This document shows positions 14,331 to 63,803 of a stretch of 64,000 nt of DNA, one piece after another. This DNA comes from a virus (taxonomy: Duplodnaviria; Heunggongvirae; Uroviricota; Caudoviricetes). The notes beneath the pieces were generated by a model. The model saw only the letters and a list, made by a program, of their open reading frames with translations, made no database searches and was not told where the DNA came from. The stretch's first letter is position 1. Every line of letters starts with the position of its first letter. The position numbers and the translations under genes were made by a program. The stretch is taken from the IMG/VR virus record IMGVR_UViG_3300028422_000873; one strand, 5' to 3'.

Positions 14331-14406
14331 AGGGTGTCTAGTATAACGGTAGTACTGCAGCCTCCAAAACTGCACAGTGAGGGTTCGAATCCTTCGGCGC
14401 CTGCCA
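14331..14406 (+). tRNA. tRNA-Trp (CCA) with poorly paired acceptor stem
   Basis: anticodon loop CTCCAAA and 3' end ...CCT-G-CCA resemble bacterial tRNA-Trp; D-arm AGTA-TAACGGTAG-TACT; T-arm GAGGG-TTCGAAT-CCTTC; acceptor AGGGTGT/GGCGCCT pairs only 4 of 7. Confidence 0.5.
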
Positions 14407-39231: not shown

Positions 39232-40428
39232 CTATGTACTGTTCTTTAAGTATTTAAGCACCTCCGATGAAGATCCAGTAAATTTAGCTTTTTTACTTAA
39301 AGCTAAAATTCTTCTCCAGCGACTATATAAGCTTTTAGTTATTCTTCCACCTCTATTCAATATCTGCTGCTTAATTGTTAAAAAATCTCCAGTTATTGCT
39401 ATTAACTCTATATCGAATTGTTGTTCTGCTTGTTTCAAGAAACCTGTAATGTTAACAGTTGGATCGTAAACAGCGATCTTACCTTGCTCTATTTTTAGTA
39501 ATTTTTCTATGGGCGATTTCTTTTTATTTTTATCATAAGACACATAATGAAATTTATCAACTGGTAATTGATTACTGATCCAACTTTTACCACTACCGGA
39601 TACACCTATAATAACAATTAACTTAGGTTTACAATATCTCCAAATTCTTTTAGCTGCCGTTTTTTGCTTACCTTTAATATTCTTAACTATATTAGATGGA
39701 AAAACATTATAATGTGCAGCAGCATCCTTAATAGAGTTAAAAATTTCTCCAATATCATTAACTACTGCTTTTTGATGTCTTTCGTTGGCAGCTATTAATT
39801 TATTTTTAACTTCAGGACGCCGAAATGATGCTTTTACGCCGTCACTTACTCGTTTAAGATATTCAGGATCAGCGGACAATTCTTTTCCTATTTTACTCTG
39901 TCTTTGACGGTTTTCTTCTGATCTCCAATACTCCTTTTGCTTAATGGATTTATTAGCTCTATATATAGGGTCTTGCCAAGCTTTTGTAAAGCGTTTACTT
40001 CTCTCTTGTCGTAGTTCAGGTTTATCTTGAAATCTTTTCTTATGAGTATTACTCATCTTGTCTTTAGTTTCTTGGGGTAATTTAGTGCCCATTTTAGCAT
40101 CACTCATCTTCTGTTTACTCTCATCGGAGTACAGATTATTAAAGCCGCCAGATTTCAAGTTATAACCATTAGGGGTTAGTGATTGCTCCTTTTCAATATA
40201 TAATTCTTCTAAGATATTTAATTCTTCAATAGATGATGCAATGTGTATTTCTTCAATCTTAAAGTTATCAACTCCATATTTCGCTATTGCTCCATGGATA
40301 GCTGTTTTTTTCTTAGAATTACTAGCAGCACTGCGACAATGACCTTTCCAACGTCTCTTAAGTGTTTTAGTGGTTTGTCCAATATAAATCTTACCATTAG
40401 TTAAATTAGTAATACGATATATAATCAT
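39232..40428 (-). CDS. GIY-YIG homing endonuclease with NUMOD3 repeats fused to a C-terminal P-loop kinase-like domain
   Basis: IYRITNLTNGKIYIGQT...NGYNLKSGG (GIY-YIG); LSDESKQKMSDAKMG / LPQETKDKMSNTHK (NUMOD3); C-terminal VIIGVSGSGKSW...ILNRGGRITKSLYSRWRRIL resembles a polynucleotide-kinase-type P-loop. Confidence 0.7.
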   Translation of the reverse strand: MIIYRITNLTNGKIYIGQTTKTLKRRWKGHCRSAASNSKKKTAIHGAIAKYGVDNFKIEEIHIASSIEELNILEELYIEKEQSLTPNGYNLKSGGFNNLYSDESKQKMSDAKMGTKLPQETKDKMSNTHKKRFQDKPELRQERSKRFTKAWQDPIYRANKSIKQKEYWRSEENRQRQSKIGKELSADPEYLKRVSDGVKASFRRPEVKNKLIAANERHQKAVVNDIGEIFNSIKDAAAHYNVFPSNIVKNIKGKQKTAAKRIWRYCKPKLIVIIGVSGSGKSWISNQLPVDKFHYVSYDKNKKKSPIEKLLKIEQGKIAVYDPTVNITGFLKQAEQQFDIELIAITGDFLTIKQQILNRGGRITKSLYSRWRRILALSKKAKFTGSSSEVLKYLKNST

Positions 40429-40568: not shown

Positions 40569-42020
40569 TTATCTACCAACGTTTTGGAATACACAGTTGA
40601 ACCTTGGAGTATACACAAAAAGTGCACCGTAAAGAACAATCGCGAATTCAAGTGCAGTACTTACAATTGCAAAATTTATTTTGGAGAGCGGAGCCAACTG
40701 CTTGAATCTCAAACATTCAGAACTCATATCCAAAAGGAATGCCTCACCGAGACCAGGAGCTTTCGCACCAGCATCTACATAAGTAGTACCAGATAGTCTA
40801 TAGTTAGCAACGAATTCTTCTGTACCAATAGCACCACCAGCAGCAGATCTATATACTCTGATATATTTCGTGTTAGCAGGGATATTAGAAAGAGTCAAAG
40901 TAACAACTTGACCAGCAGTTACAGCAACACCACCTGATTCTTGAATTGGTGCAGATTCACCAAAGTCATTCACGAATGTAACTTTGTATTGAATAGTACC
41001 AACAGGTAGATTACCACCAGAACCACCAGCAGCAGCAGAAACAGCTGCAGATCCCAATACAGGAGCATTTGCGTTAACAGCTCTTGCTCTAGCAGTTGAT
41101 CTTGGTCTCAAGAAAAGATTTGGTTTGAAATCAACTTGACCAGCAGATGTAGTCATTTTGTTAACATCATAACCAACAGTTTGAGAGGCCATACCAGGAG
41201 CACTTCTGAATTGAGGATAGAATTGTTTGATGAAAGAAGATAGAGCTAGAGGCTCAATATGCAATTCACTTGGAGAACCAAAGTTTTCCAAAGCAATTAC
41301 TGCTAAATCTTCAATATCATCTTGAGCGATAACGTTACCGTCAAGATCTTGAACAATTGATCTCCACTCACCGAATCCAGCAAAGTCTCCAGATCTATGT
41401 TGATCGTCGTCGTCACCTTTTAGAATTTGTTGTAGAAGGCCATTCATAGCAATTGAGTTGCTAGGAAGATCAGAGAGTGCGCCGTTCATAGCACCAGTTG
41501 CAATATTAGCAAAGTGTGCATGTCCCCAATACATTTCTCTTTCAAGATGCTTAAGAAGGTGCATTGTTCCTTCTTTAGCTTGTTGAGCTACAACATCACC
41601 AACAGTTGTACGGACAAGGGTCATTTGATGAGAAACTTTTCTTCTTGTTCCGAAGAAAACGATTCTTTGTCCGTCACGGATGTATGTAGAATCCTCTTCT
41701 TGAGGTGCTCCACCTTCTCCCATGTAAGGACTAGCATCAGAACCATATCCAACAAGACGGTTGTATTGTTCAAATAGGTTGTACGCTTTGTCGACAGATA
41801 CCGCAGGCCAAAACTTGAGGTTTTTCATGTCGAACGTTACTGATTTTAGTGTAGATTCTAGTGATTCAGCTTGAAGTACACCACCATAAGTTAGATCAGT
41901 CGGTTTTCCGGCTCCACCGTAACCAGCTGTGATCGCCTTATTAAGTGCTTCTACTTCTTCTGGAGACACTAGACCTTGATTTAAACCATTTACGATTTGA
42001 TTAATCATGTCATTTTCCAT
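40569..42020 (-). CDS. major capsid protein
   Basis: 483 aa; sits after the scaffold and protease-like genes and before a strong terminator; Gly/Ala/Thr-rich; ATTTTCCATTTC upstream with GGAG RBS. Confidence 0.6.
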   Translation of the reverse strand: MENDMINQIVNGLNQGLVSPEEVEALNKAITAGYGGAGKPTDLTYGGVLQAESLESTLKSVTFDMKNLKFWPAVSVDKAYNLFEQYNRLVGYGSDASPYMGEGGAPQEEDSTYIRDGQRIVFFGTRRKVSHQMTLVRTTVGDVVAQQAKEGTMHLLKHLEREMYWGHAHFANIATGAMNGALSDLPSNSIAMNGLLQQILKGDDDDQHRSGDFAGFGEWRSIVQDLDGNVIAQDDIEDLAVIALENFGSPSELHIEPLALSSFIKQFYPQFRSAPGMASQTVGYDVNKMTTSAGQVDFKPNLFLRPRSTARARAVNANAPVLGSAAVSAAAGGSGGNLPVGTIQYKVTFVNDFGESAPIQESGGVAVTAGQVVTLTLSNIPANTKYIRVYRSAAGGAIGTEEFVANYRLSGTTYVDAGAKAPGLGEAFLLDMSSECLRFKQLAPLSKINFAIVSTALEFAIVLYGALFVYTPRFNCVFQNVGR

Positions 42021-44922: not shown

Positions 44923-46011
44923 TTATAACTTTAGATTGCGTAAGTAATCATATACTTCTTCTGCAGTACCACTATAATTACTATAATTACTACGAATTGA
45001 AAGCATTCTATTAAATCTACTAATAATGGCGTTTTCGTTAGATGTTCCTCCACGGGCTGTAATTCTCTCAATAACAACATCTGGGGATTCAACTATGAGA
45101 ACTAAATGAATATCGTATTTATCACAATAGCGATTATAAACAGTAGATATATTAGTAGGAATATCAAGTAATATGGGCTTTTCATTATAATAATTATTAC
45201 GTATAATTTTATCTAAATCTTTGATGTTTATTTTATCATAAGAAATAACAGTAAATTTATCGTTTAAATTATTCGCTATTGTAGTTTTACCAACCCCAAA
45301 TTGACCTGCCAACATATAAAATTTTCTAGGTTTATAATTACCTTGATATTTATTCATCTTATCAAGATTTTGCCATGCCCACATTGGCTGCAAATTATTA
45401 AGCGACCAGCATTCTTTAAATTCAACATCTGTTGCACTTTTATAAGTAAACCAACTATCTGGTTTAATATGATCTATTTGCCACTCACCATAATTATCCC
45501 AAGACATACCTTCTTGGAATTGAGATTCAAGGTGGTTATGTAGATCCTTTATGGAATATTGTAGAGCATCATGTATCATCTGATTCTGTTGATCAATGCT
45601 GTATTTAATAATATTATGGCGCAATGCACTCATTATGAAATTACGAAGTTTCAATTGATGTCCACTAGTTGCAAAACCATCAAAATCCTCAACTTTAATT
45701 CCTCTTTTTTGACAGCTCTTTTCAATTCGTTTCTTTAATAATGCCTCCTTATGCTCTTCACTTAATTTTTTACCCTTCTTTGCTTTAGAGATTTTATCTC
45801 CCCAAGTAATATCTCGACCTTTAGATGAAGTGTTGTATATTCCAGCTTCTGCAGCACATTTACGGCACATCTGATGGCGACGACACCATTTAACCCAACG
45901 ATAACCGTGTGGACATTCAACTTTAACCTTAATATTAGAATTTTCTTTGAGTTGATCAACTGAAATTAATTGACCTCTATACATAACTTTTTGAGTGATT
46001 ATTTTATTCAT
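44923..46011 (-). CDS. HNH homing endonuclease with NUMOD motif fused to a C-terminal P-loop kinase-like domain
   Basis: GEWQIDHIKPDSWF...NLQPMWAWQN (HNH); LSEEHKEALLKKRIEK (NUMOD3-like); C-terminal LAGQFGVGKTT...ITARGGTSNENAIISRFNRML homologous to the C-terminal domain of 39232..40428. Confidence 0.65.
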   Translation of the reverse strand: MNKIITQKVMYRGQLISVDQLKENSNIKVKVECPHGYRWVKWCRRHQMCRKCAAEAGIYNTSSKGRDITWGDKISKAKKGKKLSEEHKEALLKKRIEKSCQKRGIKVEDFDGFATSGHQLKLRNFIMSALRHNIIKYSIDQQNQMIHDALQYSIKDLHNHLESQFQEGMSWDNYGEWQIDHIKPDSWFTYKSATDVEFKECWSLNNLQPMWAWQNLDKMNKYQGNYKPRKFYMLAGQFGVGKTTIANNLNDKFTVISYDKINIKDLDKIIRNNYYNEKPILLDIPTNISTVYNRYCDKYDIHLVLIVESPDVVIERITARGGTSNENAIISRFNRMLSIRSNYSNYSGTAEEVYDYLRNLKL

Positions 46012-50055: not shown

Positions 50056-52020
50056 TCAGAGACTCCAAAGAAAACCTCCACTTCCTTCAAACTCTTCTTC
50101 ATCATCATCTAAATCACTTAAAGAACCAATTTTACCTAATTTTGACAGATCTTGATCTTCTATGTTTAAATCTATTCCATTTGCTTTAGCAAACTCTTCA
50201 ACACTTGGATTTCTATAAAAATTACCATCATTGTCAGTTATATCAACAGTATCACCAACACCACAGGCAGTCATAAATTGAGTTTTACCTAATATAGCTT
50301 CAACTACATATCTAAAGCCGTCAAGCCAGTGATCATTCTCTGTATCTATTATTTCAGAAATAGTACCATCTGCTGAAGTCTTAAAGTGATATAAACCAAA
50401 TTCTGCTATTATTGGACTACAAGTCTCTTTAGCTAATAATAACTTAGTATCCATAGAACCAGGAACTCGCAGTAGCTTTTTAATGACTTGAACCCCTGTT
50501 TCTACGCTACCCTTTTTAGCATCGCCGTGTGCTGGTAAGCCGGCTTTTCTCATTTCAGTTACTGAACCTTGATCTGCTTGATCTGGAAAATATAACTGTG
50601 GTCTATACATGTTGTGATATTTAGTTTTTATATAGTGAATCCACTCTGGATTAGATGTGTAAGTCATACCATCAGCTCTAACAACATATACATTATCTTT
50701 TTTATCAATAAAGGCATATGTTATGGTTGATGGTTTGCTCCATCCCCAGTCAATACCACCATAACACGGTAACTTTAATTGATGGCATTTTTTAACGAAT
50801 ATATCATGCGTACATTCACCGGGAAAATCTTTTCCAGTTAACCGTTTCCACATTTTATTCCAGTCACACACGTGAATTCTATCATCAAATTCTTTATAGA
50901 CAATACCTTCAACCGACGGTTTAAGATTCATAAGTTGCGACAAGGCCCAATCTGTACCCTCAGCTCTTACTTTCTGTATAATCTCATCTATTGGTTTCAA
51001 CATCCATGATTTAGATTTTTGTTTCTTAGCATCACCTAAACATATAGATGCAGCTGGACACTTCATACATTTTTCACCTGGCAAAGTTACTTTCGTATAT
51101 TCTTTTTGCTTCTTAGCATCCTTACGCTTATAATCTTCTACAGTTATTACCTCCATATCTTCTAATATGGTATATGCATCGATTGGTGTTGTTCCAGATC
51201 TAGAATCGGGACATCTTTCAGAGAATTCAAAGGCTGTCCATCTCCTAACAACCCTACCTTCATTCTCAGCGTTTTCAATCTGCTTATTCATTAATCCATA
51301 TCTGGATTTTCTAGTTGAGATACCAACCCTAAGTGCTCTTTTACCACCTTTAGAGTCTAGCATACCGGAGATTTCCTTAAAAGCTTTAAGACCTTCCCCT
51401 GATACAGTATCAATCTCATCGACTACTACAAGCGGTACGTGAGGACCATTACACGCTTTAAGTGTACATGGTAAAATCTCAAGTGTTGGTTGAATACCAC
51501 CGACATTAAATATAGATTTACTCATATTGGCAGCTTTAAGTATTCTATTATCTTCATTTGATTTAGGTGGTGATACTATATCTTTAATTCTTCTGTTATA
51601 TAAGAAGTTCTTAATATATAAATAACAACGATCAGCTTGTGATAATACAGCTCCAACATGAACAACCTCCCTATGATCATGCAGTACTATCATTAACTCA
51701 GCAATAGCCATTCCTAATGTTTTACCAGAACCTCGTCCAGCAACATATAGTAGTTCTTGAATATTATCAGGGTTATTTTTATTAACGCAGATATCATAAA
51801 CTTCCCACATACAATCTAAAGGATTTGTATCTGCAAATCTAGATACATTTTGATCAGGCAGTGCTAATCCCAAAAATCTATCAATCCATAAATGGAATTC
51901 TTTTCTAGTCTTACAAGGTTTTAAGAAAACTGCTTCTTTTTGAGCAGGTGAAAGACTATCAAAAGGTACTTTCTTTTTATTCTTAGTGGTTTTTTTCTTA
52001 GTTACTTTTTTAACAACCAT
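50056..52020 (-). CDS. terL: terminase large subunit
   Basis: 654 aa; Walker A AGRGSGKT; ATPase coupling region and C-terminal RNase-H-like nuclease region with acidic residues; follows a small HTH protein. Confidence 0.8.
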   Translation of the reverse strand: MVVKKVTKKKTTKNKKKVPFDSLSPAQKEAVFLKPCKTRKEFHLWIDRFLGLALPDQNVSRFADTNPLDCMWEVYDICVNKNNPDNIQELLYVAGRGSGKTLGMAIAELMIVLHDHREVVHVGAVLSQADRCYLYIKNFLYNRRIKDIVSPPKSNEDNRILKAANMSKSIFNVGGIQPTLEILPCTLKACNGPHVPLVVVDEIDTVSGEGLKAFKEISGMLDSKGGKRALRVGISTRKSRYGLMNKQIENAENEGRVVRRWTAFEFSERCPDSRSGTTPIDAYTILEDMEVITVEDYKRKDAKKQKEYTKVTLPGEKCMKCPAASICLGDAKKQKSKSWMLKPIDEIIQKVRAEGTDWALSQLMNLKPSVEGIVYKEFDDRIHVCDWNKMWKRLTGKDFPGECTHDIFVKKCHQLKLPCYGGIDWGWSKPSTITYAFIDKKDNVYVVRADGMTYTSNPEWIHYIKTKYHNMYRPQLYFPDQADQGSVTEMRKAGLPAHGDAKKGSVETGVQVIKKLLRVPGSMDTKLLLAKETCSPIIAEFGLYHFKTSADGTISEIIDTENDHWLDGFRYVVEAILGKTQFMTACGVGDTVDITDNDGNFYRNPSVEEFAKANGIDLNIEDQDLSKLGKIGSLSDLDDDEEEFEGSGGFLWSL

Positions 52021-52027: not shown

Positions 52028-52642
52028 TTACTCTATATCATCTAGGTCTATTATGTCTTCTTCATCATCAATGTCTTGAGTTTGCTGTGTAATGACTTTC
52101 TTTTTATCGGCATTTGGAGCACTAAGTGCACCTAACATTGATGCCTTATTTGAATTACTACCGGTTCCAATCACTAATTTATGCAAAGCTTCCATTATAT
52201 CCTTATATTCTTTTATGCTCTGAATACGTAAATTTGGTAAAGGATTATTCTCTGGATCAAGGATATAGTTTTTCATCGCTATCATATGTTCAGCTGATGT
52301 AACCTCTAACATAGAAGTAAGAAAATCAACTTGATCAATTACTGATTTAATAACTTTTGCTTGAACTCTATCTTTTAAAGTTGTTTGCATCCTATCACGA
52401 TCAGTGCCCCATTTTTTTAATGCAGCTGTCAATATTATTTGCCCCAAATCATATTGAGGATATTGCTTGCTGATTTCAGTAAAAGAACAACCAATCATAT
52501 ACATCTCATATAATTTTAACGCTTCTGTATCAGACAGGGCTCCTGCTGTTTTATGTGTGCGAAGATATTTCTGACCTATTTTAATTTCTTCTTGTGTTAA
52601 GCCAGCTTTTTCTTCATCGGTAAAATTACGTTTCAATGCCAT
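52028..52642 (-). CDS. terminase small subunit (candidate)
   Basis: 204 aa immediately upstream of terL with 8-nt spacing; helical N-terminal region and acidic C-terminal tail. Confidence 0.4.
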   Translation of the reverse strand: MALKRNFTDEEKAGLTQEEIKIGQKYLRTHKTAGALSDTEALKLYEMYMIGCSFTEISKQYPQYDLGQIILTAALKKWGTDRDRMQTTLKDRVQAKVIKSVIDQVDFLTSMLEVTSAEHMIAMKNYILDPENNPLPNLRIQSIKEYKDIMEALHKLVIGTGSNSNKASMLGALSAPNADKKKVITQQTQDIDDEEDIIDLDDIE

Positions 52643-53472: not shown

Positions 53473-54483
53473 TTACACTTTCTTATATTTATCCATTATT
53501 TCATATGCTTTAATTAATAACTTACTCTTATCTCCTCCACCTTTATACACTTTATCTATAAATTCTTTGACTATCTCTTTCTCTGAAATAGCTTTAATTT
53601 GAACTTGCTTTTTCTCTTTATCTGTTGCGGTTATCTTGGGGGTTACATGCTTATCTTTAATTATTTTTTTATATTTTGCAGAGTTAAAATAAGCAGTTAT
53701 TTCAACCCTGGGACCAACAACCTGAAGAATCCAATGATCTGAAGTATTTAAGGTATTACTTAAGATATCATGAAAATCATCCATAGGTTGATCTTCACTG
53801 ACTTCAAATTTTATAGATTTCCATCTTGGAAAGGGAGATTCCACAAACGATCTCTCATATGTAGCTGTATCAAATATAGTTATCCCTTTTATCATATCTA
53901 TATCGTTAATATTATGAGAATAGGGAGTACCAGGGTATACGACTTTGCCGAATTCTTGTTTTTTATGAACATGACCACTAATTATAATATTAGCTTTTAT
54001 ATCGTCTGCATTAACTCCCGCATCAGGACGATGGTACCCATAATCGGCTCCTATAAAGGTTTGATGAGCAATACATATTTCTCTAGTATCAATTGGAAAA
54101 TTTTCTATATCTGCAATAAAAGGAACCATTGTAATGTTATCAATATCGATACGCTTATCGACTACTATAAAATTATCATTTATACCTACAAAAGATTGCA
54201 ATGCATGATACTTATTATCTTTCGGTCGATATTGATCGTGATTACCAAGTATATAATAATACTTAATGTTCAACGACATTACAAAATCAATATGTTTACG
54301 AAATTCACCTTGAATCTCTGAACGTATTACAGCATGATTATCAAAAGTATCTCCTAAATTAATAACAATATCAGGTTTATGTTCTGCTATTTGAAAATTT
54401 ATCCACTCTAAGAAAGATTTAGCCATATCAAAGCGGTTCATTTTTAAATGCGGATCACCAATAAAAAGTATTTTACTCATCAT
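53473..54483 (-). CDS. Mre11/SbcD-like recombination nuclease (T4 gp47-like)
   Basis: 336 aa; ILFIGDPHL, INLGDTFDNH, ILGNHD, ISGHVH phosphoesterase motifs in gp47 order. Confidence 0.6.
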   Translation of the reverse strand: MMSKILFIGDPHLKMNRFDMAKSFLEWINFQIAEHKPDIVINLGDTFDNHAVIRSEIQGEFRKHIDFVMSLNIKYYYILGNHDQYRPKDNKYHALQSFVGINDNFIVVDKRIDIDNITMVPFIADIENFPIDTREICIAHQTFIGADYGYHRPDAGVNADDIKANIIISGHVHKKQEFGKVVYPGTPYSHNINDIDMIKGITIFDTATYERSFVESPFPRWKSIKFEVSEDQPMDDFHDILSNTLNTSDHWILQVVGPRVEITAYFNSAKYKKIIKDKHVTPKITATDKEKKQVQIKAISEKEIVKEFIDKVYKGGGDKSKLLIKAYEIMDKYKKV

Positions 54484-54917
54484 AAATCCAATAGTATATC
54501 GTCTAACATATTATCTATTCTACTAAGCACCTCTCTATCTTTAGGTCTATTAAACTTACGTTTCCAATAAAGTATCTGATCAATGGATTGAAATTTTAAT
54601 CCGTCTACTGTACCACCTTCAATAAGGTCTGGATAATAAAATACATCGTACTTAAAAAAAGTATAATCGGATTCAAAACGTTTAAATCCATAGCATGTAA
54701 ATTCTTTATGGGATTGAACTATACTTGCTGGAGTACTTTTCTTATCCTTATTGTAAAAAATAGACTGCTGACTTTTTGAACTAAAATCTATATCATGAAC
54801 ATCACCTTTAGGAATACATCCTGCTAACATTAAGGCGAGACTCCCAGCTACCAAAAAATCAGGATTTTGTTGTTGAATTATTTTAGCTAATAATATTGCT
54901 TTATCATAGTATATCAT
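54480..54917 (-). CDS. minimal nucleotidyltransferase-fold protein (candidate)
   Basis: VAGSLALMLAGCIPKGDVHDIDF = GS-x(n)-DxD motif of Pol-beta-superfamily NTases. Confidence 0.35.
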   Translation of the reverse strand: MIYYDKAILLAKIIQQQNPDFLVAGSLALMLAGCIPKGDVHDIDFSSKSQQSIFYNKDKKSTPASIVQSHKEFTCYGFKRFESDYTFFKYDVFYYPDLIEGGTVDGLKFQSIDQILYWKRKFNRPKDREVLSRIDNMLDDILLDL

Positions 54918-54926
54918 AATTAAATT

Positions 54927-55130
54927 TCAATCCGTTAATAATTCTCTTTCTGCAATTTCATCAAGAGTAAGTTTACGAATCTTTAGTATGATTTTACCAG
55001 CATGGGTATTATATGATGGATATTCTTCTACTTCATATCCACTATCTCTCAACGATTCAATAAAGGAATATATTGATGAAAAATCTTCCAACATTAATAA
55101 GGTATCTATACTGAATTTTTCTTCACTCAA
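54927..55130 (-). CDS. hypothetical protein
   Basis: 67 aa. Confidence 0.3.
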   Translation of the reverse strand: MSEEKFSIDTLLMLEDFSSIYSFIESLRDSGYEVEEYPSYNTHAGKIILKIRKLTLDEIAERELLTD

Positions 55131-55513
55131 AACTCTACCTCCGATCCAAAAATTATGCTTTCTGCATCTTGTGCTAATGCTCGCTCTAGTATATCACGAT
55201 GCATTTTGCCGTTTTTATCCCTATCTTCATTATCGAAATCTAACTGCATAAACTGTTCTCTATAACAAGCATATCTGCGTTTAGTAAGTTGCCAATAAAA
55301 TTGTATTCTAATATCATGCTGTTCATTTTCTTCTTTCATACAGTGTTCACAATTAAAACGATTTCGCATATCTTGCACCATAACACTATTAGCTATACCA
55401 GTCATGGTCTTAGATATGTCACTCCAACGATCAAAAATACTCATATCGTCTTCTAGCCATAATTGCATTTCTTCATCTATAGATATAGGTATTTCATACT
55501 GTACATCACTCAT
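55127..55513 (-). CDS. hypothetical protein
   Basis: 128 aa; CEHC motif. Confidence 0.4.
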   Translation of the reverse strand: MSDVQYEIPISIDEEMQLWLEDDMSIFDRWSDISKTMTGIANSVMVQDMRNRFNCEHCMKEENEQHDIRIQFYWQLTKRRYACYREQFMQLDFDNEDRDKNGKMHRDILERALAQDAESIIFGSEVEF

Positions 55514-55515
55514 AT

Positions 55516-55971
55516 TTAATCCTTAGGTTTAAAAGTTAAAATATAATAACCATCTAACTCTTTAACCGCCAATCCAAGATCCTTTAATTTCTTATTTTCT
55601 TCATGATCTGTGTATAAATTTTTACAAATAACTTCTGTTACACCACATTGCCATAGTGCACGCATACAATTTTTACAAGGACTGTGAGTGCAAACCAATG
55701 TTGTATCATCCATAGATATTCCATGACGTGCACAATTATATATCATGTTAGCTTCAGAATGAATCATATACTCGTATTTTTCTGGTCTTGTTTTAGGAAG
55801 ATCTTTGTCCGGCGCTTCGCGCACATAACCATTAAAACCAGTAGCAACTACAGCATTTGTACTATTTTTAACTAATACTGCACCAACTTTGGTTTGTTCA
55901 TCTGGTGATTGCTCTGACACTGCTTCGGCAATTTTCATAAACTGTGAAATCTTATGATACTTAAAACTCAT
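55516..55971 (-). CDS. deoxycytidylate (dCMP) deaminase
   Basis: HSEANMI (H-x-E zinc ligand/catalytic motif) and THSPCKNCMRAL (PCxxC) of the cytidine/dCMP deaminase fold; 151 aa. Confidence 0.75.
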   Translation of the reverse strand: MSFKYHKISQFMKIAEAVSEQSPDEQTKVGAVLVKNSTNAVVATGFNGYVREAPDKDLPKTRPEKYEYMIHSEANMIYNCARHGISMDDTTLVCTHSPCKNCMRALWQCGVTEVICKNLYTDHEENKKLKDLGLAVKELDGYYILTFKPKD

Positions 55972-56288
55972 TAATACCCCAATAAAATTCGGTTGATCTC
56001 TTCATCAAGAGGATATATCTTATCTCCATTATCTAATTCAAACATCAGATCATAATGTTCGATATCTAATCGTGGTAAAGATTTGATCATCACAGTACCA
56101 TATAGTGACGTGAATTGCACATAATGCATAGGACCCGTACCCGTGTGTTGATAAGAATTATAGAATTCTCTCAAGAGATCTCGGTAAAAAGAACAAGACA
56201 TGAATACCTTAACAATATTCATGTCTACGTTATTCTCGTAATATCGATTTATCTCAGTTTCTAATCTACTCAAGATTGATGAGGTCAT
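55971..56288 (-). CDS. hypothetical protein
   Basis: start placed at MTSSIL (GGAG 11 nt upstream); overlaps the uvsX stop by 23 nt. Confidence 0.3.
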   Translation of the reverse strand: MTSSILSRLETEINRYYENNVDMNIVKVFMSCSFYRDLLREFYNSYQHTGTGPMHYVQFTSLYGTVMIKSLPRLDIEHYDLMFELDNGDKIYPLDEEINRILLGY

Positions 56289-57369
56289 CTGCTGTAATCT
56301 CCATTTCTTCATTACGTGCAGCAACCTTATCATCATTAACTTCGCAACAAGCGTTAAAGATTTCATCATGATACTGAGTATTATCAATAACCCACTGTTT
56401 CATGTTTGCTTCCCCCCTGATTGCAGGATAGTTTGCAAATTGCCACATCTGTGTATTAATTTTACTTGTAGAATCATTAATTGGGTGAAAGATGACATCT
56501 AAAGATTTTGCTAGTTCAAATAGTTCTTCACCTACGTTGATAATACCATCAGTGTAACTAAGTGTGAATTCTGCAACACGATATGGAGCACCAACTCTAT
56601 TCTTCTTTCCTTTAATGCGAACTTTATGGGCAACTTGTTGTTTACCTCCCATGATATTCTTGCCAACTTCAATAATACCAGCTTTAGTTTCAAGTTTTTC
56701 TACTTGTAACATATAATCACACGCATGTTTTAAGGCTCTACCATCAGGTACAATCCAAGGATTTCTCATTTTCTTGTATTGATCCATTTCTTCGTATACT
56801 TGCTGAACCAATACAGTAGTAATATCATATTCTTTAATAACGGGAAGAACACTCTTCCATGCTGAGCCAAGATATGATGCACCACCACCACCCATTACCT
56901 GATCTGTAGATTTAGTTTTAATATCCTTAGGATATTTAATGGATTTAACAGAATCGATTGCAATTGCAGTAATAGGGCATCCATCTTGCATTAATTCCAA
57001 CATCTCACCATAGATATAATCAAAGATCTTAAGTGGATCATTTGATTGTCTTACAATTAATTTATTTACATTACCACCTAATTGTGCAAACCATAGTTTA
57101 TTAAATGAAAACTCAGCATCAAATAATACCTGATATGAATCTGGGTACTTCTTCTGAATCTCAATTATCATTAATTGCATCAATAAAGATTTACCACCTG
57201 ATTCAGGGCCATATAAACAAGCCACCTTTCCTTCTGAAATACCGCCATTACCTACAGCCCAATTAAAAGATGGCGAAGCTAATTTAAATACATTTTCAGA
57301 CGGAGCTTTTGTATCTGCAGCTAACATACCAAAGTCTTTTGTTAGTCTACTCATCCATTTATCTGTCAT
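56266..57369 (-). CDS. uvsX: UvsX/RecA-family recombinase
   Basis: LYGPESGGKSLLMQLMI Walker A in RecA/UvsX context; FDAEFSF aligns to the T4 UvsX FYDSEFGI block; 367 aa. Confidence 0.8.
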   Translation of the reverse strand: MTDKWMSRLTKDFGMLAADTKAPSENVFKLASPSFNWAVGNGGISEGKVACLYGPESGGKSLLMQLMIIEIQKKYPDSYQVLFDAEFSFNKLWFAQLGGNVNKLIVRQSNDPLKIFDYIYGEMLELMQDGCPITAIAIDSVKSIKYPKDIKTKSTDQVMGGGGASYLGSAWKSVLPVIKEYDITTVLVQQVYEEMDQYKKMRNPWIVPDGRALKHACDYMLQVEKLETKAGIIEVGKNIMGGKQQVAHKVRIKGKKNRVGAPYRVAEFTLSYTDGIINVGEELFELAKSLDVIFHPINDSTSKINTQMWQFANYPAIRGEANMKQWVIDNTQYHDEIFNACCEVNDDKVAARNEEMEITADDLINLE

Positions 57370-57379
57370 ATTTATCTCC

Positions 57380-57847
57380 TTACATTCCTTCCCAATTACT
57401 TAATTGCTGATCACCATATGATATCTTTTTAACGTCATCATGTGCCAATCTAAATTCTTGAACCTTATTTTTTAAAAAAATAACAAGAGCAGTTGTACGT
57501 GCTTTTTCATTTTTAGCATCAATAACATCAGGATCAATGTCAACGTATTTTTTACGTGCTTCAGCAGAATCTTTAATACCTTTTTGTTTAAGATAATCTC
57601 CTGCTTTATCTAGAAAAGCGATTGCTTCAGCTTGTTTTAATGCTGTATCAGCTTTTATATCTAACTGAACAGCAACCGATAACATAGTAGATGATACATC
57701 AATTGCTTCGATAAAGTCCTTAAGATAGATGGGAGCCATCATTTTCTGAAGACTCCCGATGTCTTTTATTTTTCTAGTATATTCAACTAATCTAGTAACA
57801 TCTACTATCTTATTGGCCTTATCAACTGAATTTTGTTGATCAGCCAT
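57380..57847 (-). CDS. hypothetical protein (position compatible with a UvsY-like mediator)
   Basis: 155 aa between the SSB and UvsX genes; no motif. Confidence 0.3.
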   Translation of the reverse strand: MADQQNSVDKANKIVDVTRLVEYTRKIKDIGSLQKMMAPIYLKDFIEAIDVSSTMLSVAVQLDIKADTALKQAEAIAFLDKAGDYLKQKGIKDSAEARKKYVDIDPDVIDAKNEKARTTALVIFLKNKVQEFRLAHDDVKKISYGDQQLSNWEGM

Positions 57848-57861
57848 ATAAACCCCGTTTA

Positions 57862-58932
57862 TTATTGGCTAAAAATATCATCTGCCATTCTCATTAAATC
57901 CTCTGTATCATCAACGGTAGTTGTCGATTGTACTGATTGAGGGGCAGGTTGCACAGGTGCTGTTACTGAAGGTTGAATTGGTGCACTTGCTGTTACATCA
58001 ATTACGCTATCAGGACTATCTAATTTTAATCCAACTGTTCCCTTACCTTGTGGCACAGATTGAACTGGAGCAGCAGATTGAACTGGAGCAGCAGATTGAA
58101 CTGGAGTTACACCTTTTACATTTGTGTCAACATAAAAACCATCGATCTTAAGATCAGGATTAGTTTCGCATAGAAGAGTTAAGTTAGCAATAAGAATCTC
58201 TAACATCTCATCATACGATTTTTTCTGATAGACAGATCCAAGATCATAAGCTAAATTATCATAATCATTGATAACATTTTGTGGCAACGATGATCTATCA
58301 TCTTGATAAGAAATTGCTCCTGTATTAGGATCTCTAATCATGGATTGATTTTTTTCTGCGCTGTATTCAGTTTGAAGACCTTGTCCTTTACGAGAGATAT
58401 TAAACCAAACACCAGAATCATTGATATCGGCATTTAATGATGTTGGATCTTGATTATAATCAGTAATGTATTTACCCATTAATTCAAGAACTTTTTTATG
58501 TGCAGTTGATTTTAACTCTAAAATACCTACAGTACCAGATTTATCACAGGCATTATAAGCATATCCAACTTTAGGTCGAAGTTGAGAAATAAAATAATTA
58601 GTTTCTTTTAATCTCTCTTTGATTTGTTCTTCTGTTAAACCAGAAGCAGCTAATTCTGCTTTTAATGCTTCCACTTTTACTTTTAAAAGATCCAAATATT
58701 CGTAAATTGGACATTTACCCTCATATGTAATAGGGGATGCAAAAGGTCTTTTTCTTCCAGTAGCTGGATCTACTAAACCCCAAATAACATTCCATTTACG
58801 ATATGGATAACCATTAGATTCTGGACCAAATGGAGGTAATAATCTAAAGATATTAGATCCATCTTGTACTTTGTGTCTTTTCCATTCTTTTTTTGGACGG
58901 AGTGAGTCCATGTTGATTTTAATGTCGGCCAT
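57862..58932 (-). CDS. single-stranded DNA-binding protein (T4 gp32-like) with PVQSAA tandem repeats and acidic tail
   Basis: NIFRLLPPFG and CPIYEYL parallel the gp32 AVIRFLPS and CPVCQYI zinc site; C-terminal APVQSAAPVQSAAPVQS repeats and DDTEDLMRMADDIF tail. Confidence 0.5.
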   Translation of the reverse strand: MADIKINMDSLRPKKEWKRHKVQDGSNIFRLLPPFGPESNGYPYRKWNVIWGLVDPATGRKRPFASPITYEGKCPIYEYLDLLKVKVEALKAELAASGLTEEQIKERLKETNYFISQLRPKVGYAYNACDKSGTVGILELKSTAHKKVLELMGKYITDYNQDPTSLNADINDSGVWFNISRKGQGLQTEYSAEKNQSMIRDPNTGAISYQDDRSSLPQNVINDYDNLAYDLGSVYQKKSYDEMLEILIANLTLLCETNPDLKIDGFYVDTNVKGVTPVQSAAPVQSAAPVQSVPQGKGTVGLKLDSPDSVIDVTASAPIQPSVTAPVQPAPQSVQSTTTVDDTEDLMRMADDIFSQ

Positions 58933-59006
58933 GTTTTTTCCTTTGTTCTACCAAATTGGCATAGTTAATATTTACTACCTTAACGGCATGTTCATATTAT
59001 ACCATA

Positions 59007-59501
59007 TTATTCTTCAAAACTGTCTTTTTTATTTTTCTTTTTCTTAATACCTAAAAAATCATCTACTTCTTCTAGCGTAATACTATCAATACCGTTATGA
59101 GTAAAAACATCGCAATATTTAAAATCTGGTGCTACAAAATAAATTAATTTCACTTTGCTACCCCTATTAGAGATTTTTTTTGCAATTGCCTTATAAATAA
59201 GATCTGGTTTAACCGCCTCAATTATCTCCATGATGCGAAGTGCAACCTCATCTTCATCGATGGCAGAAATACCTTTATATCTAGTTAAATTAACATCTAG
59301 GAAAGCATTGAAGGTTGGATCATAGGTTGCACCAATTTCAGTAAAAATTGCTCTCAAATAGTTTATTGTTAATACTTTTTGTCTACCACGGCTTCTGCGT
59401 GCCTTAATAATTTCTTCTTTAAAATTAGGAAGGTTGATCACGAGTGTATCTGATCTGGCTTCCTCTGGTGCCTCATTAATTCTGCAATATTTAGTTGCCA
59501 T
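59007..59501 (-). CDS. hypothetical protein
   Basis: 164 aa. Confidence 0.4.
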   Translation of the reverse strand: MATKYCRINEAPEEARSDTLVINLPNFKEEIIKARRSRGRQKVLTINYLRAIFTEIGATYDPTFNAFLDVNLTRYKGISAIDEDEVALRIMEIIEAVKPDLIYKAIAKKISNRGSKVKLIYFVAPDFKYCDVFTHNGIDSITLEEVDDFLGIKKKKNKKDSFEE

Positions 59502-59519
59502 TTTATTCTCCTTTTTTTT

Positions 59520-59744
59520 CTATTCATTATCTAGTTCTATAGTTGCTGTATACTCCTCAAAAATATTGTAAACTTGTTCTACTTCTACATCAACAACACA
59601 TAATCGCTTTACAACAACTTTTCCATCTTTCATATATGGCTTTGTTTGATAATATACTTTATTAGACATTGGATCATAAATAGCTTCAATTTGTTGAGCC
59701 CGATCTTTAGATAAAAATTTATCATTTAATTCTTTTTCAGTCAT
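59520..59744 (-). CDS. hypothetical protein
   Basis: 74 aa, tightly coupled downstream of the polymerase gene. Confidence 0.4.
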   Translation of the reverse strand: MTEKELNDKFLSKDRAQQIEAIYDPMSNKVYYQTKPYMKDGKVVVKRLCVVDVEVEQVYNIFEEYTATIELDNE

Positions 59745-59752
59745 GTTATCTC

Positions 59753-62700
59753 CTATTGTATTAGTTCAATCTCTTGTATATTTAGACAAATCTTTGATTT
59801 CCACCCAGCTTTTAAAGTACCTCTAACGTATACTAAGGAGTTTATCGGGTATTTTAAAGCTTTAGTTCTGTTCCAATCGCTACCCTCAACAGAGATAAAA
59901 CCGTCACTGAGTTCAATACTACATACACACCATTCTCTACCTGTTTTCTTAGAAACACCTTTACGTATAGATGAACCGCCATATAGTAATATCATTCCAA
60001 CTTCTTTTTCAAAATTTTTCTCTAAAAGTCCAGCAGCTACATTAGCACTAGTTAGAACAGGGATATCACCAAGCATAAGCGGAATACCTTTACGACCTGT
60101 AATCTTAAAACCCTTCCATTTATCAGTAACACTCTTTAGAACATCTGGATCCGATAAAAGACTTTTATTAAAAGATTTATTAGCATCGCGCTCCATTAAA
60201 AATACATCTAATGGATTATTTTCATTAAGCTCTTGCTTAAAATTAGATGTAATCGGTTTACCAGCTGTTATACTTCTAGCTTTTTTATAATCTTCCATAA
60301 ATTTGAATCTTGCCGCCACATAATCACTAGTATCTTCCATAAAATCATCTGCAGCTCTAGCTTTTATTAATTGACTTACAACCCCAATATTAACCTTACT
60401 ATGATCCACTCTATCACTATAATCTTGAATATCTTTAAATGGTCCTTTAATCGTTAATTCCTCATAAGAAGCAGGTCCCACGCTTTTAACAACATTAATA
60501 GGTGATATAATTTTTCCATCTCTAATAACAAAAAGCTTTTCTGGATTTTTCATAGAAGGTGGCTTAATTAAATCACCTAATAGTGATATGTAGTATCGCA
60601 GTTTATCTTCATCATCTTCATTATTTAATACAGCAGTCCACCATTCTAATCTATGATGATGTTTTAAATACATCGTAATATAACCTAATTCAGCGTAAGC
60701 ATAAGAGTGTGATCTATTAAAAGAATAACGAGAAAAAGCTAAAATTGTATTACATAACTGATCAGCTTGTTCTGATGTCCATCCTCTAATCGCTGTGTTT
60801 TCCCTAATTTTATCAAAAGTAGCCATCATAACATCTTGTTTTTTCTTAGCTATTGCGCTTCTAACTTGATCTGTTTCTTCCATAGTATAGCCGCAAATAT
60901 CTACAAGGCATTTCATAACTTGCTCTTGATACACAAAGATACCATTTGTATTACCAATAATTGGGGCAAGATCTGGATGTATTAATTTCATCTCGCGCTT
61001 ACCTTGTCTAACATCTTCATACCATTTATCAGCCATAATACCGTCTTCAACTTCTGCATCCATTGCACCTGGTCTTTTTAAAGCAGTTAATGCCGATAAG
61101 TCTTCACGGCACGCAGGAACATAATCTGAAAGACATGCTTTGATAACACCAGAGTTGAATTGAAATGATGAATCTGTTTTCTTATTAAAAAAATCAACAT
61201 ACACTGCTTCGTCTTCTGGTAATCTATATACTAAATTTACCCCTTTATTATCTGGTTGTAAATAATCCACATCCACTAGTTTAACTGCATCAGTAACTAC
61301 CGATAAAGTTTTAAGACCCAATACATCAGCTTTTACAAGACCAACTTTTTCACACATCTTAGCTTCATATTGAGTAACAGAGATGCGTTCTCCCATCCCC
61401 TTATCGTACATTTTAAGAGTTGGTAAGCGTTCAGAAGGAAGATCTAGGGTAGATGTAACAAAGGCAGACGCATGTCTTGAAAGACCTCGAACAATTCCGA
61501 TTAATCTTTTAACCATATCAGCAACATCAGGATATGTATCAAAGAAGTTTTGAAGATGTTCATTAGTATCTAACTGACCTTTGTGATAATGCCCTTCTTG
61601 ATCTTCATAACCATAAAGAAAGTCCTTTTCAGATATCCCCTGTGGTGAATCTGGAATAGTTTTACAAACTGAATCAATCTCAAAATCTTTACGATTTCTT
61701 CCATATAAAGCCCACATGGCATCTTTAATTGCATTCTTAGTTTTCATAGTAGAAAAAGTAGCAACTTGAGCAAAACCAGATCCATATGTTTCTTGCATAT
61801 ATCTCATTAAATATGGTCGCGCTGTTTTAGAAATGTCCATATCAATATCAGGCCATGAACCAGCGTTGATACGAGCGTGAGATAAGAATCTCTCAAATGG
61901 CAAATCCTTAGCTACAGGATCAACATGGATGATTTGAAGATAGTACGAAAGTAATGAACCACCTGCTGAACCCCTAGCGATATTTTGTAAAAAACCTTGA
62001 TTTCTAGCGAATCTTCCAAAGTCTTCATACATTAAAAAATATGGTAAGAAATTCATTGCTTTATTGTTCATAACAACATCAATTTCTTTCATGAAACGTT
62101 CTTTATACTCAATAGTATCATTCCAACGACCATATTCTTTAATTTTCTCAAGTGTTAACATATAAGTTTGTTGATTATAATCAGATGTTTTTGATAGAAT
62201 ATGGTCTGGGATGGTGATTTTAGGTAAATGAAATTCAAATTCAATTTTTATATCACGTGCACCATCTAAGATAGATAATGAATTATTAACCCACTCTTTA
62301 TACAAGAGTTCATTAAATTTATCTCCTAAATGAACTTTAAGTTCTTTATAAAGAGTATTAGAGGTTTTTGCATGATATGATTCTTGATAATATTTACCAT
62401 CTTTATGGTTATTCTTACATAAGCAGTCCTGTAAAAGTTTGTCTTCCTTATTTAGAAAACAAGCGCCGGAAACCGGAATAGGTTTACCACCGTATTTAAG
62501 CATATCAAATAAGAAGTTATTATAAGCTTTTTGAAGATTATTTTCAGTAACAAAACAATTTTGATCAACTTTTTGAAAACCTATTTTCTTATCAAAAGAA
62601 TGTGTTATATCTACAGGATTAAATTCTATAAAGAGATCGTCGCCTAAGTGATGATAAAGCAGTTGATAACGTTGTTCTGCAGATTCTTTTTGACCGTTAC

Positions 62701-63727
62701 GTACTGCTTTTCCGATATAACCATCTATATCAGCAGTACCAAATTTAAGACCGTTGCGATATTCTAGTATCTGCTCAAATGAAACAACTGGTATTTCTTT
62801 TTTCTCATATTCAATACTGGTTTCCCACCCTATTGAAGCTAATTTCATTAAATTGAAATACCCTTCTTTTGATACAGCCCACGCATTAAGATGAAAATGC
62901 TCTTCATCTGATATATCCATTTTAAAATTAAGACCTACACCTGGAACACTAACTGTTTTAGAATTATCATTATTCTTAACATCATATAATGAGATTGCAT
63001 AACCTTGATCAACAACAGAGAACCCAGGAATATTATTGTCGATGCACCAATTTGCCCACTCTTCTGGAGTTGGAACAGCGTCATACATAGAATATTGAGA
63101 ATGTAGATGTAGTTGAGCAGGCTCTGGTAGTTTTTCTAAAACCTGTATATCATTAATATTAATCGATGGCTTATATATTGAAGCGCTCTCACCCAGCAAT
63201 TCTGCTAGAAACACATCTAGTTCAATATTAGCTGAAATATCAGATAAGGCATCATGAGCTTGAATTTCAATATCAAAATGCTTGCATAATGTTTCTAATT
63301 TATTATTATCAGTTTTTAATTTACCCTTTAATGAGCGTGCTCTATAAAGTGTATCATGTACATCTAAATTAAATAATTGAAAAAAATCAGTATTTCGATT
63401 ATATCTAGAAAAAAGCCCAGATACCATCTTTTTATCAAAACCCACATTATGTCCAGCAACACCAAATCTAACGCCGAAAGATCTAACGTAATTGATAAAA
63501 TTCTCTAATAGTTGTTCTTGTGGTTGAAAGGTTTGCATCATCTCAATAGTGATACCATGTACGTTAATAGCCTCTTGAGCAATATTATTCCAATTTACTG
63601 GTTGACCATATTGCATGAAAGCTGGTTGTCGAACACCATTTATTACAGGAATGCAGGCTATTTGAACGACATCATTCTTATTTGCATCAAGCCCTGTTGT
63701 TTCCGTATCTATCCACAATAAATTCAT
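59753..63727 (-). CDS. PolC-like replicative DNA polymerase: N-terminal DnaQ (DEDDh) 3'-5' exonuclease fused to PHP and Pol III alpha catalytic core
   Basis: start at MNLLWIDTETTGLD (AGGAG RBS); exo motifs WIDTETTGLD, HNVGFD, HDALSD; Pol III alpha palm region GSAGGSLLSYYLQIIHVDP...PDIDMDI; about 1324 aa. Confidence 0.85.
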   Translation of the reverse strand: MNLLWIDTETTGLDANKNDVVQIACIPVINGVRQPAFMQYGQPVNWNNIAQEAINVHGITIEMMQTFQPQEQLLENFINYVRSFGVRFGVAGHNVGFDKKMVSGLFSRYNRNTDFFQLFNLDVHDTLYRARSLKGKLKTDNNKLETLCKHFDIEIQAHDALSDISANIELDVFLAELLGESASIYKPSININDIQVLEKLPEPAQLHLHSQYSMYDAVPTPEEWANWCIDNNIPGFSVVDQGYAISLYDVKNNDNSKTVSVPGVGLNFKMDISDEEHFHLNAWAVSKEGYFNLMKLASIGWETSIEYEKKEIPVVSFEQILEYRNGLKFGTADIDGYIGKAVRNGQKESAEQRYQLLYHHLGDDLFIEFNPVDITHSFDKKIGFQKVDQNCFVTENNLQKAYNNFLFDMLKYGGKPIPVSGACFLNKEDKLLQDCLCKNNHKDGKYYQESYHAKTSNTLYKELKVHLGDKFNELLYKEWVNNSLSILDGARDIKIEFEFHLPKITIPDHILSKTSDYNQQTYMLTLEKIKEYGRWNDTIEYKERFMKEIDVVMNNKAMNFLPYFLMYEDFGRFARNQGFLQNIARGSAGGSLLSYYLQIIHVDPVAKDLPFERFLSHARINAGSWPDIDMDISKTARPYLMRYMQETYGSGFAQVATFSTMKTKNAIKDAMWALYGRNRKDFEIDSVCKTIPDSPQGISEKDFLYGYEDQEGHYHKGQLDTNEHLQNFFDTYPDVADMVKRLIGIVRGLSRHASAFVTSTLDLPSERLPTLKMYDKGMGERISVTQYEAKMCEKVGLVKADVLGLKTLSVVTDAVKLVDVDYLQPDNKGVNLVYRLPEDEAVYVDFFNKKTDSSFQFNSGVIKACLSDYVPACREDLSALTALKRPGAMDAEVEDGIMADKWYEDVRQGKREMKLIHPDLAPIIGNTNGIFVYQEQVMKCLVDICGYTMEETDQVRSAIAKKKQDVMMATFDKIRENTAIRGWTSEQADQLCNTILAFSRYSFNRSHSYAYAELGYITMYLKHHHRLEWWTAVLNNEDDEDKLRYYISLLGDLIKPPSMKNPEKLFVIRDGKIISPINVVKSVGPASYEELTIKGPFKDIQDYSDRVDHSKVNIGVVSQLIKARAADDFMEDTSDYVAARFKFMEDYKKARSITAGKPITSNFKQELNENNPLDVFLMERDANKSFNKSLLSDPDVLKSVTDKWKGFKITGRKGIPLMLGDIPVLTSANVAAGLLEKNFEKEVGMILLYGGSSIRKGVSKKTGREWCVCSIELSDGFISVEGSDWNRTKALKYPINSLVYVRGTLKAGWKSKICLNIQEIELIQ

Positions 63728-63740: not shown

Positions 63741-63773
63741 ATAAAAAATCCCAGGTTTATTTGACCTGGGATT
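63741..63773 (-). terminator. rho-independent terminator upstream of the polymerase gene
   Basis: AATCCCAGGT-TTATTTG-ACCTGGGATT hairpin; minus-strand RNA followed by TTTTAT. Confidence 0.6.
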
Positions 63774-63803
63774 CTATCTAACAAAGTTGTACTGTTCTAA
63801 ATG

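Follow-up and report, generated by a model that had tools for sequence, protein, structure and literature searches.

A DnaE-type phage polymerase with an N-terminal epsilon-like exonuclease and a decayed PHP metal site, encoded beside T4-style recombination genes

What kind of replicase is encoded among the recombination genes of the uncultured tailed phage IMG/VR record IMGVR_UViG_3300028422_000873, and did it come there by module exchange? We analyzed a stretch of 64,000 nucleotides of this record (hereafter, the window), in which positions 53473-63727 of the minus strand form a tight series of open reading frames (ORFs) in one orientation. The original prediction, made from the sequence alone, described this block as a mosaic replisome, with a PolC-type polymerase embedded in a T4-like set of recombination and replication genes. 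Our analysis points instead, with a probability of roughly 0.8, to a DnaE-type replicase that carries a fused epsilon-like DEDDh exonuclease and a PHP domain kept as a scaffold, accompanied by a T4-style recombination set, in a lineage of uncultured large phages related to Myxococcus phage Mx1.

The polymerase is a single ORF of 1324 residues (59753-63727, minus strand) that Pfam, NCBIfam and PDB sequence matches mark as a DnaQ-DnaE fusion DNA polymerase of family C. In the ORF list the entry opens at a TTG at 63784, but the credible start is the ATG at 63727, with TAGGAG upstream. Pfam recognizes RNase_T (residues 4-170), PHP (206-370), DNA_pol3_alpha (527-804), the fingers (807-977) and HHH_6 (1054-1132), and along the protein a DEDDh exonuclease is followed by a linker, PHP, the Pol III alpha core, a helix-hairpin-helix (HhH) domain and a C-terminal OB. 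The N-terminal, epsilon-like 3'-5' exonuclease domain (residues 1-170; 63218-63727) scores 77 bits against RNase_T (PF00929; cut-off 24) and is followed by a variable linker of ~30 residues (63119-63217) that is poorly conserved in the family alignment, by the PHP domain (62438-63118), by the palm, thumb and fingers of the polymerase core (60797-62149; PF07733 and PF17657), by a tandem HhH DNA-binding domain (60332-60568; PF14579, 34.9 bits) and by a C-terminal region homologous to the OB fold of the DnaE topology (59753-60010), all on the minus strand. The OB assignment comes from homologs: PF01336 is listed for several of them, among these P0010, where it covers residues 1269-1325 at 25.1 bits, just below the cut-off of 27, and the C-terminus of the window polymerase itself has no Pfam match. 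The fusion is in frame, with 37-67 nt separating the exonuclease and core matches across 50 IMG/VR loci, and the architecture recurs in more than 264 full-length homologs, which are 49-78% identical and lie on contigs of up to 183.8 kb. These results bear out two parts of the original prediction, namely a fusion of about 1320 residues between a DEDDh exonuclease and a Pol III alpha core, and a replicase that is not a family-B gp43, since Pfam and NCBIfam place it in family C and in neither family A nor family B.

In PolC, the DEDDh exonuclease is inserted inside the PHP domain, and the N-terminal part holds the OB and NI/NII domains. Judged by its sequence, the window replicase is a DnaE-type family-C polymerase with an N-terminal DnaQ and not a PolC, because its exonuclease precedes the PHP domain rather than lying inside it and because PolC models match the exonuclease only: the PolC equivalogs PRK00448 (88 bits, cut-off 873) and TIGR01405 (69 bits, cut-off 1043) are both confined to residues 6-178. 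The same two findings remove the PolC label that the locus had been given. NCBIfam DnaE models cover residues 205-1178 at 480 and 471 bits, the second of these being TIGR00594 with a cut-off of 434, whereas DnaE2 models score far lower (247 vs 480 bits). The DnaE1 equivalog PRK05673 gives 480 bits, below its cut-off of 1002; because such scores lie far under the DnaE1 equivalog cut-offs, the polymerase would be classed as DnaE-like but not as a bacterial DnaE1 ortholog by NCBI's criterion. The exonuclease domain, for its part, reaches 88 bits against the PolC-exo model and 67 bits against epsilon models. In the PDB, the polymerase sequence is matched best by the DnaE1 structures from M. tuberculosis, E. 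coli and T. aquaticus, with no PolC structure among its matches. Only the exonuclease lies ahead of its uninterrupted PHP domain, and every homolog listed has this order.

Compared with known systems, the enzyme resembles the PolC of Firmicutes in that one polypeptide joins a DEDDh exonuclease and a family-C polymerase, but it differs in placing the exonuclease ahead of an uninterrupted PHP domain and the OB at the C-terminus. With bacterial DnaE1 and E. coli alpha it shares the succession of PHP, palm, thumb and fingers, HhH and C-terminal OB (the OB as seen in family homologs); unlike bacterial DnaE1, it is phage-encoded and stops at the OB region, without an extension resembling the tau-binding C-terminal domain. 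In E. coli, the C-terminal tail of epsilon binds the PHP domain of alpha; that tail contact is non-covalent, whereas the link in the window protein is covalent and N-terminal. A DEDDh proofreader paired with a PHP that loses its ligands is also found in bacterial DnaE1s with a fused DnaQ and in the E. coli alpha-epsilon pair (PMC12926913, the main text of which does not state at which end the bacterial DnaQ-DnaE1 fusions occur). The Pol III alpha of jumbo-phage group 3.2 (phage G, c-st) and Bacillus phage DnaE are likewise phage family-C polymerases with an N-terminal PHP nuclease (PMC7824862), 25-28% identical to the window core, but their matches start at query residue 191 at the earliest, and none among the matches listed reaches the exonuclease. 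The same holds for all phage-record matches to the polymerase, which stay below 30% identity and, among those listed, never span the exonuclease region. As a separate observation, inteins (Intein_splicing, Hint, LAGLIDADG) are present in many polymerases of the wider family (P0075, P0117, P0128, P0132, P0140, P0153, P0174 and P0177), where most of them interrupt the fingers region or follow closely behind it; the window polymerase has none.

The catalytic residues of both enzymatic domains are intact. Exonuclease residues D7, E9, D98, H158 and D163 align to D12, E14, D103, H162 and D167 of E. coli epsilon and show no change in 113-114 of 114 family members; palm residues D627, D629 and D801, which align with D401, D403 and D555 of the E. 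coli enzyme, are the same in all 114. The PHP metal site is another matter. We scored it in the alignment columns of what we take to be E. coli positions 10/12/19/44/69/83/134/201/203. The choice of columns was validated by the published consensus string, which 35 sequences reproduce exactly there. The canonical motif comprises nine ligands, HHDHEH[C/H]DH (PMC12926913). The window protein reads H207 H209 D216 Q241 G265 H279 D333 G421 C423 (HHDQGHDGC) and thus keeps four of nine; at the Glu ligand, 105 of 114 family members have Gly and none has Glu. By sequence, this PHP most resembles the degenerate PHP of the E. coli type, together with 4GX8 and 4GX9, which are engineered constructs that join epsilon's C-terminal segment to the PHP domain of alpha (PMC3664792). 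As those fusions have been crystallized, an N-terminal tether from epsilon to PHP is structurally feasible.

Is the loss of the PHP site linked to the presence of an exonuclease? We compared the 80 best of 504 IMG/VR relatives of the polymerase, of which 49 fused forms (the window included) and 26 complete exonuclease-less forms were scored. The exonuclease is fused in frame in about 50 of the 80 loci. About 28 carry an exonuclease-less polymerase, with 49-53% core identity, and in these no exonuclease was found within 10 kb. All 26 complete exonuclease-less polymerases have the PHP string HHDHEHCDH, with nine of nine ligands, whereas all 49 exonuclease-fused polymerases combine an intact DEDDh site with a PHP of three to seven ligands in which the Glu is never present. 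The complementarity is therefore complete across the relatives scored. It extends to nine more distant exonuclease-less representatives, each with nine of nine ligands, and the Mx1 polymerase, which lacks the exonuclease domain, has eight or nine depending on the alignment. Pfam PHP scores show the same division: 99-128 bits in the exonuclease-less P0140, P0153 and P0174 and 78 in P0144, vs 56-69 in fused forms and 62 in the window. P0177 and P0207, which form a separate lineage with an N-terminal extension, keep one or two of nine ligands and are nested in an exonuclease-less clade. The decay signatures vary, with the Glu at ligand 5 replaced by Gly or Ser and varied changes at ligands 6-9, which would fit decay after fusion. 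Exonuclease-less and fused genomes have a common gene neighborhood, as checked in seven exonuclease-less relatives. For bacteria, a rule of one proofreader per replicase has been reported, together with DnaQ 'fused to some DnaE1s' (PMC12926913).

The strongest competing account holds that the DEDDh domain is not a replicative proofreader at all but processes ends in recombination or degrades host DNA, with the decay of the PHP being unrelated. DEDDh nucleases do have many roles, the domain reaches only 67-88 bits against DnaQ and PolC-exo models, and recombination nucleases are encoded nearby. We nevertheless regard this account as improbable: the complementarity is what replacement of one proofreader by another predicts, with 49 fused forms set against 26 plus nine exonuclease-less ones and a probable second lineage in P0177 and P0207, and the position of the tether mimics the attachment of epsilon to alpha (PMC3664792).

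If the polymerase is a DnaE-type replicase with its own proofreader, how does it come to sit among T4-style genes? Downstream of it (all on the minus strand) lie a conserved 164-residue ORF (59007-59501), a single-stranded DNA-binding protein (SSB; 57862-58932), a 155-residue ORF (57380-57847), a RecA/UvsX-family recombinase (56266-57369), a dCMP deaminase (55516-55971) and an SbcD/Mre11/gp47-like nuclease subunit (53473-54483). The SSB, of 356 residues, includes a disordered region, and its C-terminal helix is acidic and conserved. It matches phrog_1192 (E=3e-8), a family that also holds T4 gp32 (E=3.5e-16); it is 16% identical to T4 gp32 and 28% to the Mx1 SSB. When the SSB family was aligned to the single T4 gp32 sequence with hhalign, the probability was 2% and only a GxxxxRxLP motif aligned, so a fold search was needed to settle the likeness to gp32. 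The AlphaFold2 (AF2) model (predicted local distance difference test, pLDDT, 78.9) has gp32 cores as all of its top five Foldseek matches in the PDB (probability 1.00; E=2.5e-6 for 2A1K and 1.1e-5 for 1GPC). All relatives and Mx1 keep the 155-residue ORF between SSB and RecA, and a 166.6-kb contig encodes the identical protein. Its AF2 model is all-helical (pLDDT 84.3), with T4 UvsY structures 4ZWT and 4ZWQ as top Foldseek matches (TM score 0.62/0.74, root-mean-square deviation 4.2 A, probability 1.0); fold, position and conservation in Mx1 together make it a probable UvsY-like recombination mediator. The recombinase, of 367 residues, matches PF00154 (89.9 bits) and phrog_97 (134 bits), which also includes T4 UvsX, and is 30% identical to the RecA-like protein of Mx1 (144 bits) vs 21% to T4 UvsX (46 bits). 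The deaminase was recognized by PF00383 (74.9 bits) and phrog_174, and the nuclease subunit by Metallophos and phrog_100 (136 bits), the PHROG of T4 gp47. Just beyond the window end are a partner of 598 residues resembling SbcC/gp46 (positions 5933-7729 of locus L011) and a RuvC-like gene. UvsX, gp32-like SSB (at the level of the fold), gp47/Mre11-like nuclease and dCMP deaminase are thus all present, as had been predicted.

Four small ORFs around the polymerase have no Pfam match, and three of them no PHROG match either. The 164-residue ORF, which has neither, has a counterpart at this place in 12 of the 13 relatives examined (24-54% identity); a 74-residue ORF directly downstream of the polymerase (59520-59744, minus strand) has no detectable match in the relatives checked, and ORFs of 97 and 113 residues upstream (L011 positions 9228-9521 and 9583-9924) lie at the same positions in most of them. 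They may be unrecognized accessory subunits of the replisome.

The genome as a whole is not T4-like. In a BLASTP comparison of the window ORFs with T4 regions holding every relevant gene, weak matches were found to gp47, cd, UvsX (21% identity) and ThyA (a thymidylate-synthase paralog), and two incidental ones, from a GIY-YIG homing endonuclease of the window to SegD and over 31 residues to Srd. The window ORFs had no match to T4 gp17, gp20, gp23, gp55, gp45, gp44/62, gp41 or gp61; for gp43, gp45 and gp44/62, the roughly 70 window ORFs scanned gave no BLAST match of value at E<=10 and no PHROG match, and gp33 was not detected in the window. Two further parts of the original prediction are not supported at this point. 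The large terminase TerL (50056-52020, minus strand) had been called T4-type and counted in the block; it lies outside positions 53473-63727, has no Pfam Terminase_6 match, finds no T4-like phage by BLAST or tblastn, and shares with T4 gp17 only the very broad phrog_2 (57 vs 236 bits). It matches phrog_5653 as well, and its best tblastn match is Mx1 (24.8% identity over 85% of the query). Beside it, directly upstream, a 204-residue ORF (52028-52642, minus strand) is 30% identical (E=4e-11) to the ORF at the same position in Mx1 and has a faint helix-turn-helix hint, making it a candidate small terminase. A gp55-like sigma factor had also been proposed, but T4 gp55 belongs to phrog_234, which none of the roughly 70 scanned ORFs matches, and BLAST with T4 gp55 and the Mx1 sigma factor, together with Pfam on the marginal candidate, was negative as well. 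That candidate, ORF 44923-46011, was rejected, as it offers only a 41-residue BLAST match (E=0.007) and P-loop hints. Set against the recombination-dependent replication set of T4, the locus is alike in its gp32-fold SSB, its recombinase in the UvsX PHROG, its UvsY-like fold and its SbcCD/gp46-47 homologs; it is unlike T4 in its family-C replicase in place of gp43, in structural genes unrelated by BLAST and in identities to T4 of 16-26%.

The affinities of the genome lie elsewhere. A near-identity DNA search with 24 kb against 50,697 phage records gave no match. Myxococcus phage Mx1 (OR576727), an unclassified large myovirus of 169.6 kb with many tRNAs (PMC10720576), is the best phage match for TerL and the recombinase and the nearest cultured relative. 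A BLASTP comparison of all window ORFs with its whole genome identified 11 shared proteins at 23-38% identity: major capsid protein (MCP), protease, portal, TerL, the ORF just upstream of TerL, SbcD, RecA, the 155-residue ORF, SSB, Pol and one more. Mx1 has the order Pol-hyp-SSB-hyp-RecA, with GroEL and an SbcC-like gene nearby, and the order SbcD-x-x-TerL-portal is common to the window and Mx1. Likeness to Mx1 thus lies in a polymerase core 31% identical and in the same module order; the differences are a polymerase without the exonuclease and with its PHP ligands largely or wholly in place, a GC content of 55% vs ~35% in the window, and primase and helicase genes that adjoin RecA in Mx1 but not in the window. 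Uncultured relatives were retrieved with the family alignment, as single-sequence patterns were too specific and confirmed nothing. In 13 of 13 relatives checked, the order is MTase-GroEL-SbcC-(RuvC)-o97-o113-Pol-o164-SSB-o155-RecA-SbcD-TerL. The block would be the replication and recombination core of uncultured large phages (~150-185 kb) that are distant relatives of Mx1 and belong with it to the Mx1-like large myoviruses, an informal group for which no taxon is defined. In the window and its 10-kb flanks (L011, L094), GroEL (Cpn60), two ClpP-like proteases, a dUTPase, an N6/N4 DNA methyltransferase and a Band_7/SPFH protein (958-2073) are also encoded, and the Mx1 annotation likewise includes GroEL and a Clp protease-like protein.

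Could a T4-like phage nevertheless have recently taken up a PolC-type polymerase, giving the mosaic replisome first proposed? Recombination genes of T4 functional type do surround a family-C polymerase, and swapping of polymerases between phages is documented (PMC11348598). The conserved order in the relatives and the Pol-SSB-RecA arrangement in Mx1 argue, however, that the pairing of a family-C polymerase with recombination genes is a trait of the lineage and not a recent mosaic. The polymerase is DnaE-type and not PolC, no T4-like structural or late-transcription genes were found, and the shared arrangement has diverged uniformly in Mx1 and the relatives examined, which indicates vertical inheritance. 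Recent exchange is therefore slightly less credible still than a DEDDh domain with a role outside replication, and of the two origins first offered, module exchange or a deep-branching lineage, the second fits better. Similarly, the T4-like gene set holds for the functional type of the recombination genes but not for the genome, 11 proteins of which match Mx1. The pairing of family C with T4-type recombination genes is real yet less unusual than had been claimed: family-C polymerases, the rarest of three families known from tailed phages, are well documented, in 947 of 18,382 Caudoviricetes genomes (PMC11348598), and mixtures of bacterial-type with T4 or archaeo-eukaryotic-type replisome parts are described as typical of phages (PMC4889955).

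Clamp, clamp-loader, primase and helicase genes were found neither in the window nor in the 10 kb on either side. The polymerase has a D-P-[IL]-x-[IV]-F motif (residues 1171-1176; 60200-60217, minus strand) that is strongly conserved inside an otherwise variable linker: of 115 sequences, 103 have the P and 110 the F. In three alignments it coincides with the position of QADMF, the internal clamp-binding site of E. coli alpha, and it occurs in exonuclease-less relatives and, as TPLTRF, in Mx1. Conservation and position make it a candidate clamp-binding site, and recruitment of a beta clamp through it is offered as a hypothesis only. A search for a canonical QxxLF site yielded as its sole conserved match the YQEQ motif of the fingers, which was rejected as a clamp site. 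Least credible of all is that the polymerase is an accessory, repair or error-prone (DnaE2-like) enzyme while host Pol III or another phage polymerase, encoded outside the window, copies the genome: although 64 kb of a ~150-185-kb genome were examined and the window offers no clamp, clamp loader, helicase or primase, the DnaE2 models score only about half as high as the DnaE models, the intact proofreader sets the protein apart from DnaE2 (PMC12926913), conservation of the gene within the replication module is universal, and Mx1 has no other annotated polymerase.

Taken together, we favor a DnaE-type replicase in which the polymerase core would extend primers and pass mismatched 3' ends on to its tethered DEDDh domain, in the manner of alpha and epsilon in E. 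coli. The connection between exonuclease and PHP would here be covalent, with the PHP, poor in metal ligands, acting as a scaffold only. SSB, probable UvsY-like mediator, RecA/UvsX, SbcCD and RuvC-like resolvase would then support T4-style recombination-dependent replication by a bacterial-type polymerase.

Several points weigh against this reading. The PHP site is presumed inactive by the published motif criterion only. The UvsY fold match has an E value of ~0.1, and no helicase, primase, clamp or clamp loader accompanies the polymerase in the window. For P0177 and P0207, Pfam RNase_T was not called at E<=0.001, which weakens the case for a second independent fusion. In neighbor-joining trees the exonuclease-less IMG/VR clade has 100/100 support and is nested among fused forms, and the fused forms are monophyletic in 0/100 replicates. 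With short internal branches and a root that relies on outgroups of ~30% identity, however, the trees are outgroup-dependent and unstable; we did not use them to decide between gain and loss of the exonuclease. The possible histories are one gain followed by loss, several gains, or an ancestor that had two proofreaders and then underwent reciprocal loss. Finally, a polymerase relative was found in 2 of 185,579 species genomes, both Bacteroidota metagenome-assembled genomes (MAGs), and the hint of a Bacteroidota host comes from MAG binning only. The contigs concerned, of Flavobacteriaceae (JALWTD010000010.1) and Cytophagales (LNEN01000305.1), measure 73 kb and 147 kb and are probably binned phage contigs. 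A bacterial chromosomal origin of the gene, or contamination, was rejected, as TerL, portal and MCP genes flank it and relatives are so rare among species genomes.

Other features of the window can be added. A terminator-like hairpin of 12 pairs followed by a T-run (63745-63775, minus strand) lies between the upstream gene and the polymerase, 18 nt upstream of the start codon; given this strong hairpin, the polymerase may open its own transcription unit or rely on read-through. Across the region as a whole, the terminator count is not above chance, and no convincing sigma-70 promoter was found, promoter-like sites being not above chance either. At ~28 kb, gene orientation and GC/AT skew change sign, with plus-strand genes before and minus-strand genes after, and this switch marks the divergence or convergence point of two large transcription blocks. 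Sixteen tRNA genes (3798-14406, plus strand) include Ile-UAU, two Met and two Ala-UGC, and an RtcB RNA ligase gene (8160-9257; phrog_1075, 429 bits) sits in the middle of the array, which together may form a module for tRNA repair and codon supply. On the minus strand, the GIY-YIG homing endonuclease mentioned above for its weak match to T4 SegD (39232-40428; phrog_314, 142 bits) adjoins the MCP gene (40569-42020). Nearby, among otherwise unrecognizable ORFs of the structural region, a 'DNA transfer protein' (36565-38244; phrog_1745, 330 bits) and a dATP/dGTP pyrophosphohydrolase-like protein (38186-38662; phrog_801, 146 bits) are encoded on the same strand.

What does the alternation of proofreaders mean for this phage group? 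In the literature searched, the coverage of which was incomplete, we found no description of an exonuclease-fused phage DnaE or of PHP/DnaQ alternation within a phage group. One possibility, which we put forward tentatively and hold to be considerably less likely than its failure, is that a single syntenic phage group maintains two interchangeable states, fused DnaQ with a dead PHP or intact PHP without DnaQ. The ancestor would perhaps have had both proofreaders, as the trees hint, with reciprocal loss afterwards, and the N-terminal tether would be a third topology beside the PolC insertion and the non-covalent epsilon, phage-born and possibly arisen twice. If this were true, the group would be a natural, minimally confounded test of the equivalence of PHP and DnaQ and of why replicases keep one. 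Annotation also gains, as a family-C polymerase is coupled here to a T4-style gp32/UvsY/UvsX/SbcCD recombination set, and the findings should be useful for work on replicase evolution and phage annotation. Genomes that are syntenic and differ mainly in their proofreader provide natural paired constructs for the biochemistry of PHP vs DnaQ. The pattern is one of one proofreader replacing another; it changes no paradigm but extends to phages the bacterial rule of one proofreader per replicase, a rule that has no exception in this large, abundant group of uncultured phages.

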